Assembly (NCBI GenBank): GCA_903954185.1
Contig: CAJBMM010000005.1
Location: 1,768 to 65,767, forward strand
Length of the DNA: 64,000 nt
Direction of reading: 5' to 3'
Source: an uncultured Candidatus Berkelbacteria bacterium
GTDB lineage: Bacteria; Patescibacteriota; UBA1384; CAJBMM01
In this document: positions 15,210 to 18,553 of the stretch, one piece after another
Layout: each line of letters begins with the position of its first letter
How positions within the stretch are numbered: position 1 is the stretch's first letter
Notes under the pieces: model-generated
What the model was told of the DNA's origin: nothing
Database searches by the model: none
Seen by the model: the letters and a program-made list of their open reading frames with translations, nothing else
Made by a program: the position numbers and the translations under genes

Positions 15210-15668
15210 TTAGCTTTTAAGATTATTTAAGAGATTCCTAGCTTTAATTATAAAGCTTAAATCGCGATTGTGAATAATTTTTTCAATATTGTCTTGTGGG
15301 TTTATGCGCTCAAAGGTGGTTATTGCCTCATCTACTGGCATCCAGATGACTTTAAAATTCCGCTCTATTTCACGCTTATCAAAGTTTGGCTCGCCTTTTT
15401 CTCCAACTAGCTTGCCAATAAAATATTTTGAGTGATAAGTGCGATCTTTTAGTGGGTGATAGAACGAAAAATCACCAATACATTCGCCCACGACTATCTT
15501 ACAACCCGCTTCTTCTAATACCTCACGATTAAGCGCTTGCATTTCGGTTTCACCTTCTTCAATGGTACCTCCCGGAATTTTATAGTACACCCCATTTTGC
15601 ACACTTAAAATGGGAGTATTCTTTTCATCGTCAAATATTATTGCCCTAACGGCAAATTTATCTTTCAT
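15210..15668 (-). CDS. NUDIX hydrolase
   Basis: Nudix box GGTIEEGETEMQALNREVLEEAGC (GX5EX7REUXEEXGU). Confidence 0.8.
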   Translation of the reverse strand: MKDKFAVRAIIFDDEKNTPILSVQNGVYYKIPGGTIEEGETEMQALNREVLEEAGCKIVVGECIGDFSFYHPLKDRTYHSKYFIGKLVGEKGEPNFDKREIERNFKVIWMPVDEAITTFERINPQDNIEKIIHNRDLSFIIKARNLLNNLKS

Positions 15669-15699
15669 AAAATCTCATTTGTTTGTAATAATCATATAA

Positions 15700-16260
15700 T
15701 TATTGATATTCACTAGGTATTTCTATACCAAATTCATTGCATAAATTACTCACATCTTCGCGATCTTTCTGTTTAATATCGTAACCAAGATGAAATTTGA
15801 TAGCATATTCTGGAGAAACACAATGCACTTTAAGACCGTTAATGTCCCCGTTGCCCAGAAAAGATTCTGCTGGATTCATTTCACCATTTTCTATAGGGCC
15901 GTATACCCCATTTCCTTCTTGGTCAAACACAATAACGGTAAAATCAATCTCGTGGCCAAAATCATTTATATAATGAAATTTTATATTACTTAAATCATCT
16001 CTTAAAATAACCGAATAACCGTTTTTGTCTAAATAGTTTCGGACTGCCATAACATCTTTTCCTTGAATTATTAAATCTAAATCATTATGGGTGCGAGTCT
16101 GTCTCTTTAATAGCGCATCCACTCCCCAACCGCCTTCAACCCAAAATTTAATACCCAAATTGTCCAATTTAGCACAAAAAATAGCCACATCAGCAGCGGT
16201 CATCTCATGACTTTTATGTGCATTTGCTTTCATGGCTAAATGATAACAAAAAAAGCCCAC
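15700..16260 (-). CDS. lincosamide nucleotidyltransferase Lnu(A)/LinA-family (ANT(2'')-fold) homolog
   Basis: FWVEGGWGVDALLKRQTRTHNDLDLII matches the Lnu(A) core YWLDGGWGVDVLTGKQQREHRDIDIDF. C-terminal VSPEYAIKFHLGYDIKQKDREDVSNL matches ISKEAQLLFHSGYDLTETDHFDIKNL. True start is probably an internal Met (about 16233 or 16203), because the ORF-track start abuts tRNA-Trp. Confidence 0.6.
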   Translation of the reverse strand: MGFFCYHLAMKANAHKSHEMTAADVAIFCAKLDNLGIKFWVEGGWGVDALLKRQTRTHNDLDLIIQGKDVMAVRNYLDKNGYSVILRDDLSNIKFHYINDFGHEIDFTVIVFDQEGNGVYGPIENGEMNPAESFLGNGDINGLKVHCVSPEYAIKFHLGYDIKQKDREDVSNLCNEFGIEIPSEYQ

Positions 16261-16273
16261 TTGGGCTATTTTT

Positions 16274-16347
16274 TGGCACGGGTGGAGGGAATCGGACCCC
16301 CGTTCGCAGTTTTGGAGACTGCCGTCCTACCACTGAACGACACCCGT
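16274..16347 (-). tRNA. tRNA-Trp (anticodon CCA)
   Basis: Minus-strand sequence ACGGGTGTCGTTCAGTGGTAGGACGGCAGTCTCCAAAACTGCGAACGGGGGTCCGATTCCCTCCACCCGTGCCA. Cloverleaf with anticodon loop CTCCAAA, T-arm GGTCCGATTCC and encoded CCA. Confidence 0.85.
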
Positions 16348-16501
16348 ATTCAATTAATTCAAAAAGCAAAATTCAAAATGCAAAATATTGGAATTTTATT
16401 AATTATAAACGATATTCCAACATTATGCATTCTGCAATCTTAATTCTGCATTTAAATGTAAATTCAAATATCTCGGATGGCAATTTATTGCAAATTACCA
16501 C

Positions 16502-16669
16502 TTACTTTTTCTCTTTATGTAAAGTATGCTTTTTGCAAACTTTGCAATGCTTTTGCAACTGCAACTTATCTTGGGTATTGGTGCTGTTACGCTCGCTGTG
16601 CACGTTAGATAAACCACATTCAGAGCAAACTAACAACGCCATATTTCTTGCCCCTTTTTTCTTTGCCAT
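16502..16669 (-). CDS. rpmG: 50S ribosomal protein L33
   Basis: 55-aa product MAKKKGARNMALLVCSECGLSNVHSERNSTNTQDKLQLQKHCKVCKKHTLHKEKK with the L33 CxxC...CxxC zinc ribbon. RBS GGAGAA. Not in the ORF track (<60 aa). Confidence 0.85.
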   Translation of the reverse strand: MAKKKGARNMALLVCSECGLSNVHSERNSTNTQDKLQLQKHCKVCKKHTLHKEKK

Positions 16670-16784
16670 TTTGATTCTCCATTCCTAATTAATATCCAAT
16701 TTTAAACATATATTCCGTATGTAGATTCTTGTCTTCGCCAGAATGACAGATTACAATCGACTCCTACAACCTATAACCTACAAC

Positions 16785-17219
16785 CTATTTTCCCGATAAA
16801 TCTACTAACTCAATCCCTGCTTCTTTGGCTGCTGCGAAAATTCTTTCATCCCTGTAAAACTCGCCAAACAATACTTTTTTTATTCCACTATTACTGATTA
16901 ATTTAAAACATGGCCAACATGGGCTAGACGTAATATAAATCCACGATCCGTCTAAGTTAACACCATTTCTGGCGGCCTGTACAATGGCATTTGCCTCGGC
17001 ATGAATTGTTCTTACACAATGCCCATCTTCCATCATATGCCCTACTTCGTCACAATGTGCAGTGCCAGATATGCTTCCATTGTATCCAGTAGAAAGCAAT
17101 CTTTTGCTTTTCACTATTACGGCGCCAACATGTTTTCTATCGCATGTTGCCCGAGTAGCTGCCACTTTGGCAATCTCCATAAAATAGTGATCCCAATCTA
17201 TACGTTTTCTATCGGCCAT
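16785..17219 (-). CDS. comEB: dCMP deaminase (ComEB-type zinc cytidine/deoxycytidylate deaminase)
   Basis: HAEANAI zinc-binding motif and PCWPC motif. About 144 aa, typical of ComEB. Confidence 0.8.
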   Translation of the reverse strand: MADRKRIDWDHYFMEIAKVAATRATCDRKHVGAVIVKSKRLLSTGYNGSISGTAHCDEVGHMMEDGHCVRTIHAEANAIVQAARNGVNLDGSWIYITSSPCWPCFKLISNSGIKKVLFGEFYRDERIFAAAKEAGIELVDLSGK

Positions 17220-17793
17220 TTTTAATCTCCTCCACTATTTTATCTAATTGATTGTACATAGTCTGCTTATCCCCACCGTTCTCAACTGTATATTCAGCCA
17301 ATTTGACGCATGGATCAATCGAAACCATCATCGGATCGGGATTACTCCGCTCGCGGTTCTCTTTTTCTTCAAACTCTGTCATGGTTTTTGGATCGTTGGG
17401 GCGACCAGAGCGCTCTTGCATTCGGGCAAACCTGGTTTCAATTGGTGCATCTACAAATATTAAATGAAAATTACCAGTGCGGCTTAATTCATCAATTTCT
17501 TTGATGTTTCTAATCCCTTCAACAACAACATTTTCACCAGGCTTTATTGAATCTACAATTTTCTTGGACCAATAGCCAAAGCCTTCATCTGCACGTTTTT
17601 TTGCTGCGTAGGCATATTCATTATCTCGGCCTAATTCGATACCATTTTGACGCATTTCTTCTCGAATTGTATCGCCATAACCACGATTAATAAAACCATG
17701 TTGTTTTTCTAGGTACTCTGCTGCCAATCCCTTACCCGCCGAAAGATATCCCGTAATTCCTATAACCATTATTTTCTCCTTAAACGCAACCAA
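17209..17793 (-). CDS. P-loop nucleotide kinase family protein (dNMP-kinase-like), 11-nt overlap with the downstream dCMP deaminase
   Basis: Walker A-like IGITGYLSAGKG at the N-terminus. Size and layout resemble dNMP/dephospho-CoA-type kinases. Exact substrate cannot be called. Confidence 0.45.
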   Translation of the reverse strand: MVAFKEKIMVIGITGYLSAGKGLAAEYLEKQHGFINRGYGDTIREEMRQNGIELGRDNEYAYAAKKRADEGFGYWSKKIVDSIKPGENVVVEGIRNIKEIDELSRTGNFHLIFVDAPIETRFARMQERSGRPNDPKTMTEFEEKENRERSNPDPMMVSIDPCVKLAEYTVENGGDKQTMYNQLDKIVEEIKNGR

Positions 17794-18019
17794 TTTAATA
17801 GCGAATTTGTATGAGCTATTAAGCCCTTATTGCAATTCGTTAAATACGAAGAGCAATAATATTGGTGATAAAGCAAGGGGAGATGTTCGTTCACCTTAGT
17901 GAACGCAGCCCCATTTTTGAGTGCCCGTTCGACTCGTCGTAATTTACGACTCGCTCAGGGCATTCGTCTCTCTTCGTAATCTCACGGTCGTAGACCATGA
18001 GCGAACGAAGTGAGTCGAA

Positions 18020-18095
18020 TGGAGCTGAAGACGGGGATTGAACCCGTGACCTCATTCTTACCAAGAATGTGCTCTACCAACTGAGCTACTTCAGC
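18020..18095 (-). tRNA. tRNA-Thr (anticodon GGT)
   Basis: GCTGAAGTAGCTCAGTTGGTAGAGCACATTCTTGGTAAGAATGAGGTCACGGGTTCAATCCCCGTCTTCAGCTCCA. Anticodon stem CATTC/GAATG with loop TTGGTAA. Confidence 0.85.
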
Positions 18096-18231
18096 AAGTA
18101 TCGCCCCATACCACTCACGAAGTTCGGGTATAGGGCATGCACCTCAGTATTACTTCAACATATACGTAATATACTTACAACTTTTTGGCGTTGCCATGCA
18201 TCCCGAAGGAGCAAAGCGACAAAGCGGTGCA

Positions 18232-18318
18232 TGGTGCTGGGAGTAGGATTTGAACCTACGTAGCCGCAAGGGCGTCAGATTTACAGTCTGATGTATTTGA
18301 CCACTCTACCATCCCAGC
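18232..18318 (-). tRNA. tRNA-Tyr (anticodon GTA), long variable arm
   Basis: GCTGGGATGGTAGAGTGGTCAAATACATCAGACTGTAAATCTGACGCCCTTGCGGCTACGTAGGTTCAAATCCTACTCCCAGCACCA. Anticodon loop CTGTAAA. Confidence 0.85.
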
Positions 18319-18477
18319 ATATATAAGCAAAATAACTAATTACTAATTTCAAATGACGAATCAATTTACAATGCTCAATTTTCAATTAATTTTTTAATGT
18401 TCAAATTAACAAATTGCTCGCTGCACGAATGGTTAGCTTCTGGCGCTGCCATGTACCCAAGCGAAGCGAGTGGTACG

Positions 18478-18553
18478 TGGAGCCGATGAGAGGACTTGAA
18501 CCTCCGACCGTCACTTTACAAAAGTGTTGCTCTACCAACTGAGCTACATCGGC
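18478..18553 (-). tRNA. tRNA-Thr (anticodon TGT)
   Basis: GCCGATGTAGCTCAGTTGGTAGAGCAACACTTTTGTAAAGTGACGGTCGGAGGTTCAAGTCCTCTCATCGGCTCCA. Anticodon loop TTTGTAA. Confidence 0.8.

Follow-up and report, generated by a model that had tools for sequence, protein, structure and literature searches.

A tuf-less tRNA-rpmG-tRNA-Trp locus with a kinase-deaminase pair in a small clade of Patescibacteria

The window analyzed here, meaning the whole stretch of DNA at its full length of 64 kb, comes from a contig of ~66 kb in a metagenome-assembled genome of an uncultured Candidatus Berkelbacteria bacterium. Its minus strand carries, in order, tRNA-Thr(TGT), tRNA-Tyr, tRNA-Thr(GGT), a P-loop kinase gene, a dCMP deaminase gene, rpmG, tRNA-Trp, a nucleotidyltransferase (NTase) gene of the Lnu/ANT(2'') family and a Nudix hydrolase gene. 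This gene order is real, and we consider it probable that it descends from the widespread tRNA-tuf-rpmG-tRNA-Trp-secE-nusG cluster and that it is old and common to a small clade of Patescibacteria (candidate phyla radiation, CPR). The segment from 16254 to 18673 would constitute one tRNA/ribosomal-protein transcription unit, leading from a candidate promoter through tRNA-Thr(UGU), tRNA-Tyr, tRNA-Thr(GGU), the nucleoside monophosphate (NMP)-kinase-like gene, the dCMP deaminase gene, rpmG and tRNA-Trp to an intrinsic terminator. Such a unit is probably a degraded descendant of an ancient junction between the tufB and secE operons.

The locus and the canonical cluster

A first-pass annotation, made by reading the letters of the window, had listed the nine genes in this order. 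The order was confirmed with ARAGORN and Rfam for the tRNAs and with Pfam, NCBIfam and PDB searches for the proteins, and all listed features lie on the minus strand at the same coordinates and look intact (Table 1). Intact motifs include Walker A in the kinase, HAE/PCxxC in the deaminase, the CxxC pairs of L33, GGWG..DLD in the NTase and the Nudix box. The same annotation had derived the backbone from the canonical order Thr-Tyr-Gly-Thr-tuf-rpmG-Trp-secE-nusG, and this homology was upheld, the cluster, extending to rplK, being recovered in Planctomycetota, Deltaproteobacteria, WOR-3 and other groups. Indeed, the four tRNAs and rpmG of the window have exactly the canonical identity and order, minus tRNA-Gly.

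The survey behind this comparison comprised 160 rpmG loci, obtained from L33-alignment scans of genome and metagenome collections and annotated with ARAGORN and phmmer. EF-Tu is encoded directly upstream of rpmG in 32 loci, 27 of which run on as Trp-(secE)-nusG-rplK, and where enough upstream sequence was available (12 loci) all 12 have the order Thr(tgt)-Tyr-Gly(tcc)-Thr(ggt)-tuf. The canonical order is found, for instance, in Planctomycetota (L072, L075, L084) and Deltaproteobacteria (L035, L044); the WOR-3 locus L020 reads tuf-rpmG-Trp-nusG-rplK on a contig that begins within tuf. tRNA-Trp follows rpmG in half of the loci (80/160), with several further loci ending at a contig edge, and tRNA-Gly(tcc) occurs exclusively in loci with EF-Tu. 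A tRNA-Thr abuts rpmG, without tuf, in 25 of the 160, including every sampled Patescibacteria locus that retains the skeleton. Tuf-less loci that keep secE-nusG downstream belong to Brachyspira (L039), Thermotogae (L053) and Hydrogenedentota (L069); in Spirochaetia L081 a tuf-less order is apparent in the locus annotation, though the tally script classed this locus otherwise. No tuf lies between tRNA-Thr(GGU) and rpmG in any sampled Patescibacteria locus, nor in Brachyspira, Spirochaetia, Thermotogae or Hydrogenedentota. The kinase or deaminase is present in four of the 160 surveyed loci. In earlier work the tufB operon was described as the variable tail of a conserved operon cluster, rpmG and tRNA-Trp were placed within the secE operon, and rearrangements and tRNA losses were found to be frequent in the tufB/secE cluster (Brandis 2021, PMC8046335). 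Both the tuf-less and the canonical forms in our survey agree with that account.

Several members of the canonical cluster were not detected in the window. EF-Tu, NusG and L11 queries (E. coli proteins) gave zero phmmer matches across the whole 64 kb, and ARAGORN found no tRNA-Gly there. The earlier statement that tRNA-Gly, tuf, secE and nusG are missing consequently holds within the window for tuf, nusG and tRNA-Gly; secE was not seen either, but no window-wide secE search was made, and outside 12-22 kb the Pfam scan took in only open reading frames (ORFs) of 100 aa or more.

Two genes lie between tRNA-Thr(GGU) and rpmG in the window. The kinase, which starts at 17769 in databases (186 aa), belongs to a small family with 18 homolog clusters in 5.8e9 proteins, and its closest named homolog is annotated "Patescibacteria group bacterium". 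Its nearest structures in PDB are the uncharacterised UPF0200/AdkA-like proteins 3H0K and 3LW7 (1e-5). Wherever genomic context is available (L004, L006, L010, L011, L093, L173, L174, L175), this clade-specific gene sits at the Thr(GGU)/rpmG junction. The deaminase scores 91 bits against PF00383 and 150 bits against TIGR02571, the latter being under the equivalog cut-off of 219, and its translation contains the HAE and PCWPC zinc motifs. Orthologs that are 74-80% identical occupy the same place in L004, L006 and L010. In the window the deaminase gene overlaps the kinase stop by 11 nt, and the two genes also overlap in L004 and L006; the deaminase gene abuts rpmG in L004 and is separated from it by 8 nt in L006. 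Because of these overlaps and gaps of 0-8 nt in L004 and L006, kinase, deaminase and rpmG behave as one operon. The next feature after rpmG in the window is tRNA-Trp(CCA), following a gap of 154 nt. In functional terms, the kinase and the deaminase, and with less certainty the Nudix enzyme, would act on (deoxy)pyrimidine nucleotides, and the first two would most likely be expressed together with the tRNAs and L33.

Table 1. Features of the locus, in the direction of the minus strand.
Feature	Coordinates	Strand	Evidence and remarks
Candidate sigma-70-like promoter, TTGAAA-18-TATCAT	18644..18673	-	Consensus scan, 10/12 matches; ~90 nt upstream of tRNA-Thr(UGU); pattern match only
tRNA-Thr(UGU) (anticodon tgt)	18478..18553	-	ARAGORN; Rfam 68.9 bits; first gene of unit
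tRNA-Tyr(GUA)	18232..18318	-	ARAGORN and Rfam
tRNA-Thr(GGU)	18020..18095	-	ARAGORN and Rfam
P-loop NMP-kinase-like protein (UPF0200/AdkA-like, AAA_18)	17209..17793	-	Pfam AAA_18 9e-15; NCBIfam PRK08356 44.6 bits
dCMP deaminase (ComEB-like)	16785..17219	-	Pfam PF00383 4e-26; TIGR02571 150 bits
rpmG (ribosomal protein L33, zinc-ribbon type)	16502..16669	-	Pfam PF00471 6e-15; alignments
tRNA-Trp(CCA)	16274..16347	-	ARAGORN and Rfam; last gene of unit
Intrinsic-terminator-like hairpin (AGCCCAAGTGGGCT + T-run)	16254..16267	-	7 nt past tRNA-Trp
Lnu/ANT(2'')-family nucleotidyltransferase (NTase)	15700..16233	-	Pfam PF10706 8e-29; ORF extendable back to 16260
Nudix hydrolase	15210..15668	-	Pfam PF00293 5e-14; Nudix box intact

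Downstream of tRNA-Trp the window encodes, after the NTase and the Nudix hydrolase, LiaF and PspC (Pfam). The remainder holds a dcw/mur cluster, ArgRS, TyrRS, penicillin-binding proteins, a PilB-like ATPase, Nramp and transketolase and is, to judge from its predicted genes, ordinary Patescibacteria chromosome.

Relatives, outgroups and direction of change

Where the first-pass annotation saw a conserved locus rearranged in this genome, the arrangement proved to be largely shared by relatives at the level of the clade. Seven relatives carry the full kinase-deaminase arrangement, three carry the kinase only and one carries neither gene. The order Thr-Tyr-Thr-kinase-deaminase-rpmG-Trp is found in L004 (kinase 64% and deaminase 80% identical to the window), L006/L094 (54% and 74%), L010 (54% and 75%), L175 and L093. 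On the P0019 contig the deaminase is followed by the NTase (81% identical to that of the window) and then Nudix. At the Thr(GGU)/rpmG junction of L011, L173 and L174 only the kinase is present, and in L009 the end of tRNA-Thr(ggt) is 20 nt from rpmG. Kinase identity to the window among the relatives is 46-64%. tRNA-Thr(UGU) occupies the same position in L004, L006, L009, L010, L011, L173 and L175. The clade is flanked upstream by holB-TPR-zf_Tbcl-M50 and tRNA-Pro and downstream by LiaF/PspC, transketolase (Tkt) and Nramp, and M50 is 57-67% identical to the window within the clade versus 42-47% in outgroups.

The outgroups share the upstream synteny of tRNA-Pro, M50 and holB-TPR with the window. 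In all of them (L089, L096, L152, L154, L159, L165) tRNA-Thr(ggt) is directly adjacent to rpmG, and with this junction empty, the skeleton would by parsimony already have lacked tuf and tRNA-Gly before the kinase and deaminase were inserted. The proposal that these two genes displaced tuf is not supported, in view of both this adjacency and the lack of tuf at that place in any sampled Patescibacteria.

On the other side of tRNA-Trp, L165 continues with IleRS-RodA/FtsW-SecE-NusG-L11 (Pfam), and L159, L154 and L152 read Trp-IleRS(-RodA) up to the contig end. In L012, tRNA-Trp is followed by 4.7 kb encoding CARDB, GDP-mannose dehydratase and RNase HII and then by NusG-L11. Since secE-nusG-rplK is retained 4.4-4.7 kb downstream of tRNA-Trp in these distant Patescibacteria relatives (L165, L012), the linkage was lost en route to the present genome. 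Of the earlier idea that accessory genes took over the secE-nusG position, the loss of linkage and the hypervariability of the slot stand; however, the genes between tRNA-Trp and secE in L165 and L159 are the housekeeping genes ileS and rodA.

Rooted trees of single proteins (M50, holB, Tkt and the kinase) were built by rough neighbour-joining. The kinase tree puts the window and L004 on one side and the others opposite, with the kinase-deaminase pair on both sides. L009 branches basally with M50 but not with holB, and in the Tkt tree it is sister to the window. Because the single-protein topologies disagree, the number of deaminase losses and their history were taken from parsimony only.

From these comparisons a history in five steps can be proposed. 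The Patescibacteria skeleton would already have been Thr-Tyr-Thr-rpmG-Trp, without tuf and tRNA-Gly, as in the outgroups, and would have kept a loose link to secE-nusG. Kinase and deaminase, as a translationally coupled pair, would then have been inserted once, by parsimony, at the Thr(GGU)/rpmG junction in the clade ancestor and transmitted vertically, with the deaminase lost two or three times afterwards and neither gene present in L009. The link from tRNA-Trp to secE-nusG-rplK would have been broken, for which the outgroup order Trp-ileS-rodA-secE-nusG may represent an intermediate. Next, the DNA past the tRNA-Trp terminator would have become a breakpoint region, with contents that vary from relative to relative in nearly every case. 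In the present genome this region contains the Nudix gene that L093 also has and, wedged between the terminator and Nudix, an Lnu-like NTase gene.

Two further observations concern the members of the skeleton themselves. tRNA-Trp(CCA) occurs at the same position in two forms whose distribution does not match the kinase tree. A short form of 71-72 nt with a reduced D-arm and the anticodon at 29-30 is found in L004 (11294-11364), L089 (7994-8065), L173 (8807-8877) and L174 (941-1011), and a 74-nt form is found in the window (16274-16347), L006, L009, L010, L011 and L093. Elsewhere in Patescibacteria rpmG itself has moved. In Roizmanbacteria/Microgenomates (L021, L025, L034, L041, L045, L046, L063) it follows a 428-aa ORF, taken as secY in an apparent large ribosomal-protein operon, and is followed by a 375-aa weakly kinase-like ORF; in other Patescibacteria (L031, L032, L038, L043, L067) it lies directly after nusG. 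The differing sites of rpmG point to several independent rearrangements of this gene.

The slot behind tRNA-Trp and the upstream island

The hairpin at 16254-16267 marks the border between the conserved unit and a variable slot. Hairpins with T-runs of differing sequence are present at the equivalent place in L093, L009, L011 and L089, as judged by eye from the alignment. Behind tRNA-Trp the window and the P0019 contig carry NTase and Nudix; L093 has two tandem Nudix genes (1798-2758), L004 a truncated LiaF gene, L006 a 93-aa ORF, L010 a CHAP-domain gene, L173 HxlR/GATase and L174 a flavodoxin-like gene. L011 has a Nudix gene and a dCTP deaminase gene (2680-3792; PF22769, 8.6e-39) plus CHAP, and in L009 nothing precedes Tkt. 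The distant L089 carries the NTase, a different AAA_18/thymidylate-kinase-like gene and a methyltransferase gene. Variable behaviour is limited to the ~1 kb that follows the tRNA-Trp terminator and to a separate island on the upstream side of the tRNA cluster.

The NTase scores 101.1 bits against Pfam PF10706 (gathering score 21) and aligns over its full length with the LnuA structures 4WH5/4FO1 (3e-15), its GGWGVD and DLDLI matching LnuA residues. Against the NCBIfam Lnu allele models it reaches 63-94 bits where the cut-offs are 300-350: the best model is Lnu(D) (94.2 bits versus 325), Lnu(D)/(C)/(P) give 86-94 versus 300-325, and Lnu(A) gives 63.4 versus 300. After tRNA-Trp the NTase occurs only in the species of the window, in the P0019 contig and in L089, where it is 58% identical; it is absent from L004, L006, L009, L010, L011, L093 and L173. 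The housekeeping proteins of the window and L089 are only 28-45% identical, and the NTase may have been transferred to the same site or be under strong constraint. NTase homologs of 43-45% identity in L091 and L092 were considered as a clue to the donor, but their surroundings are unrelated and not those of Patescibacteria, include no tRNA close by and are uninformative.

The Nudix gene has a different distribution. Its product is 51% identical to the first Nudix protein of L093, which is encoded directly after tRNA-Trp with no NTase between, and because of this positional ortholog the Nudix gene was probably inherited. A single recent NTase-Nudix cassette was rejected, since the NTase is lacking in L093, which carries the orthologous Nudix gene, and that Nudix gene is lacking in L089, which carries the NTase.

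That accessory genes had landed here by way of a tRNA gene, as first suggested, found no support in the form of an integrase or an att-like repeat of a tRNA end. Pfam and NCBIfam identified no integrase within 15210-18553, the nearest mobile-element gene, an IS30 transposase, lying beyond the tRNA cluster, and a repeat search of 14900-19300 found no tRNA-Trp repeat beyond Nudix. The sole repeat in that interval copies 12 nt of the 5' end of tRNA-Thr(tgt) and is of the order expected by chance, with ~0.6 such pairs estimated in 4.4 kb. The GC content of NTase and Nudix (35-37%) is not distinctive in a window of ~39%.

Directly upstream of tRNA-Thr(UGU) lies a small coiled-coil ORF (18781-19203, plus strand) with tandem 21-nt repeats (FEQVDKR motif) at 18885-18926, and within this ORF metagenome assemblies often break (contig ends of L001 and L002). 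A sharp-edged block of ~0.8 kb (19690-20520, minus strand, as the tRNAs) follows 1.2 kb upstream of the tRNA cluster and has 62% GC, against 39% for the window. On the minus strand it folds with -396 kcal/mol (z = -9.1; plus strand z = -4.0), and an orphan 213-aa ORF lies within it at 19757-20398. No match to the block was obtained in Rfam, Pfam, NCBIfam, PHROGs, the collection of 5.8e9 proteins, phages, plasmids or viral contigs. It is present in 15 contigs, and the DNA of six that were compared is in every case 100% identical to the window. In L004, whose kinase is closest to that of the window, the same slot (4800-9100) contains unrelated orphan-ORF blocks of 63-67% GC, and for one of these the fold has z = -6.0. 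The block of the window could be a structured RNA of a new kind or a foreign orphan gene.

A hairpin repeat of ~25-40 nt, TGTCATTCCTGC-nnnn-GCAGGAATC, in many cases with TA..ATAATAAAT after it, was counted five times against 0.03 expected, with coordinates at 12838-12860, 19238-19328, 20601-20641, 20886-20924, 24182-24257 and 59288-59310. Inverted copies flank the high-GC block and also the entire island of 19.24-24.27 kb. One copy is in frame within the transketolase ORF, which is ~60 aa longer than its relatives of 612-617 aa; the copy appears to lie in an extra inter-domain segment. The repeat is reminiscent of Rickettsia palindromic elements or miniature inverted-repeat transposable elements (MITEs).

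Between the tRNA cluster and holB the island also contains the IS30-family transposase (21312-22367, plus strand; NCBIfam 211 bits), with inverted repeats at 21277-21294 and 22342-22359, and beside it a MerR-domain protein (22960-23889) that shares 34% identity with a Fic-MerR protein occupying this slot in L004. The adjoining zf_Tbcl-TPR-holB-M50 block (24442-27271) is oriented opposite to that of L004, L006, L009, L010, L173 and L175: holB diverges from the tRNA cluster in those six, whereas holB/TPR of the window are co-directional with the tRNAs, as in the distant L089. The boundary of this orientation coincides with the palindromic pair of hairpin repeats at 24182-24257.

Weighing the histories and known systems

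A chimeric metagenome assembly, or a chance likeness to the canonical cluster, could in principle account for the gene order: the window comes from a metagenome-assembled genome, and assemblies often break ~0.4 kb upstream of tRNA-Thr(UGU) (L001, L002). However, the same 12-kb order was assembled independently from at least four samples (L001-L003), and because these assemblies agree the order is not an assembly artefact. It is also found in 10 or more related genomes that stem from separate studies; the tRNAs agree with the canonical cluster in identity, anticodon and order, as does rpmG-Trp; and intermediate forms exist (L039, L053, L069, L012, L165). An artefact or coincidence is already refuted and barely credible. 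Also improbable, though less so, is the first-pass view of a tRNA-targeted landing pad, here taken as recent, in which kinase and deaminase replaced tuf and the Lnu-like gene and Nudix replaced secE-nusG. The canonical cluster does have tuf and secE-nusG at exactly those positions, hardly two relatives have the same content behind tRNA-Trp, the NTase has a sporadic distribution and is found at the same site in a distant lineage (L089), and the tRNA cluster has just upstream of it the island with the IS30 transposase, the 62%-GC orphan block and the hairpin repeats. As regards the core of the locus, however, this view is largely refuted: the kinase-deaminase-rpmG order is kept at the same junction, operon-tight, at 46-64% kinase identity, so that the pair is old, and tuf is missing there in every sampled Patescibacteria locus and in several other phyla, with the outgroup junction empty. 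As for the slot, the lack of an integrase and of a direct repeat of a tRNA end, the housekeeping nature of the outgroup genes between Trp and secE, and the positional ortholog of Nudix in L093 all argue against it.

We favour the older, clade-wide history, to which an adaptive element might be added. Under this proposal a deoxypyrimidine-pool module (NMP-kinase-like protein, dCMP/dCTP deaminase and Nudix) was recruited to a growth-rate-controlled tRNA/ribosomal-protein unit, and the clustering is adaptive rather than neutral. We regard this as a tentative addition with less than even chances. The translational coupling of kinase and deaminase, abutting rpmG, is in its favour, as are the Nudix and dCTP deaminase genes just past tRNA-Trp in L011, which has no dCMP deaminase, the two Nudix genes in the slot of L093, and the different AAA_18/thymidylate-kinase-like gene after the NTase in L089. 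L011 and L093 may in fact exemplify non-orthologous displacement within the module. Yet the best matches of the kinase are uncharacterised UPF0200/AdkA-like proteins, the Nudix proteins of L011 and the window are only 25% identical, no Nudix gene lies in the slot of L004, L006, L010 or L173, and L009 has no module gene at all. More speculative still is a combined model, in which the tRNA-rpmG-tRNA-Trp unit would serve as a scaffold for deoxypyrimidine-pool enzymes whose expression along with the tRNAs and L33 would tie the supply of dNTPs to the capacity for translation in an organism of minimal metabolism, and the tRNA-Trp terminator would be a recurrent capture site for an Lnu-like NTase moving between distant Patescibacteria; we think this rather unlikely. 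Several points also weigh against the history that we favour. The promoter is a pattern match, the co-transcription and the substrates of the kinase and Nudix enzyme are predictions, and the trees are rough neighbour-joining trees of single proteins; as they conflict, L009 may either have lost the pair or have been without it from the start. For this genome, of whose ~66-kb contig 64 kb were covered, and for its nearest relatives, tuf, secE and nusG were not located. Finally, a purely vertical history leaves the 58% NTase identity between the window and L089 (28-45% for housekeeping proteins) unexplained, and this identity suggests either horizontal transfer to the same site or strong constraint.

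Current understanding is not overturned by these results. If the favoured history is right, they provide a dated, stepwise decay of a highly conserved bacterial gene cluster in reduced Patescibacteria genomes, from the canonical cluster to a tuf-less skeleton, an insertion in the tRNA/ribosomal-protein unit, the loss of the secE-nusG link and a variable slot behind the terminator. They also call for caution, in that a gene at the usual place of tuf is not evidence of replacement. Their practical value is modest: they yield a marker of synteny for a single Patescibacteria clade, a nucleotide module that is a candidate for co-regulation, and a gene of the Lnu family on a CPR chromosome.

Among known systems, tRNA-gene-associated genomic islands are inserted by an integrase at a tRNA gene's 3' end. 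The window resembles them in having strain- or species-variable genes directly downstream of tRNA-Trp, including one of a resistance family (Lnu-like), and an IS30 transposase and foreign-looking DNA near the tRNA cluster. Unlike such islands, the slot has neither an integrase nor a duplicated tRNA 3' end (att) and measures only ~1 kb, the Nudix part of its cargo was probably inherited vertically, and its border is an intrinsic terminator, not an att site. The NTase shares with Lnu(A)/(C)/(D)/(P) and ANT(2'')-Ia the full-length LnuA homology, the GGWGVD...DxD motifs and a similar size (177 aa). Its likeness to them is drawn from sequence, it falls far below the NCBIfam cut-offs for the Lnu alleles, and it is carried on a Patescibacteria chromosome, unlike Lnu/ANT(2'') genes on plasmids, transposons or integrons.

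The canonical tufB-secE cluster is thrU-tyrU-glyT-thrT-tufB, (rpmG, tRNA-Trp)-secE-nusG-rplKAJL-rpoBC (PMC8046335). The window agrees with it in tRNA species, anticodons and order (Thr(tgt), Tyr(gta), Thr(ggt)), in the use of one strand and in rpmG leading directly to tRNA-Trp(CCA), and its tRNAs are presumably co-transcribed with protein genes as well. It differs in lacking tRNA-Gly(UCC), tuf and nusG-rplK, in having the NMP-kinase-like gene and the dCMP deaminase gene between tRNA-Thr(GGU) and rpmG, and in the terminator and unrelated genes behind tRNA-Trp; in canonical loci secE always adjoins nusG, and in the window secE was not seen, though it was not the object of a dedicated window-wide search. 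A second counterpart is the tuf-less variant Thr(GGU)-rpmG-Trp-secE-nusG of L039, L081, L069, L053 and the Patescibacteria loci L012 and L165. These loci, unlike the window, retain secE-nusG downstream, adjacent or within ~4.5 kb, and have nothing between tRNA-Thr(GGU) and rpmG. They share with the window a junction without tuf and tRNA-Gly, and the skeleton of this variant is that of the closest outgroups of the clade.

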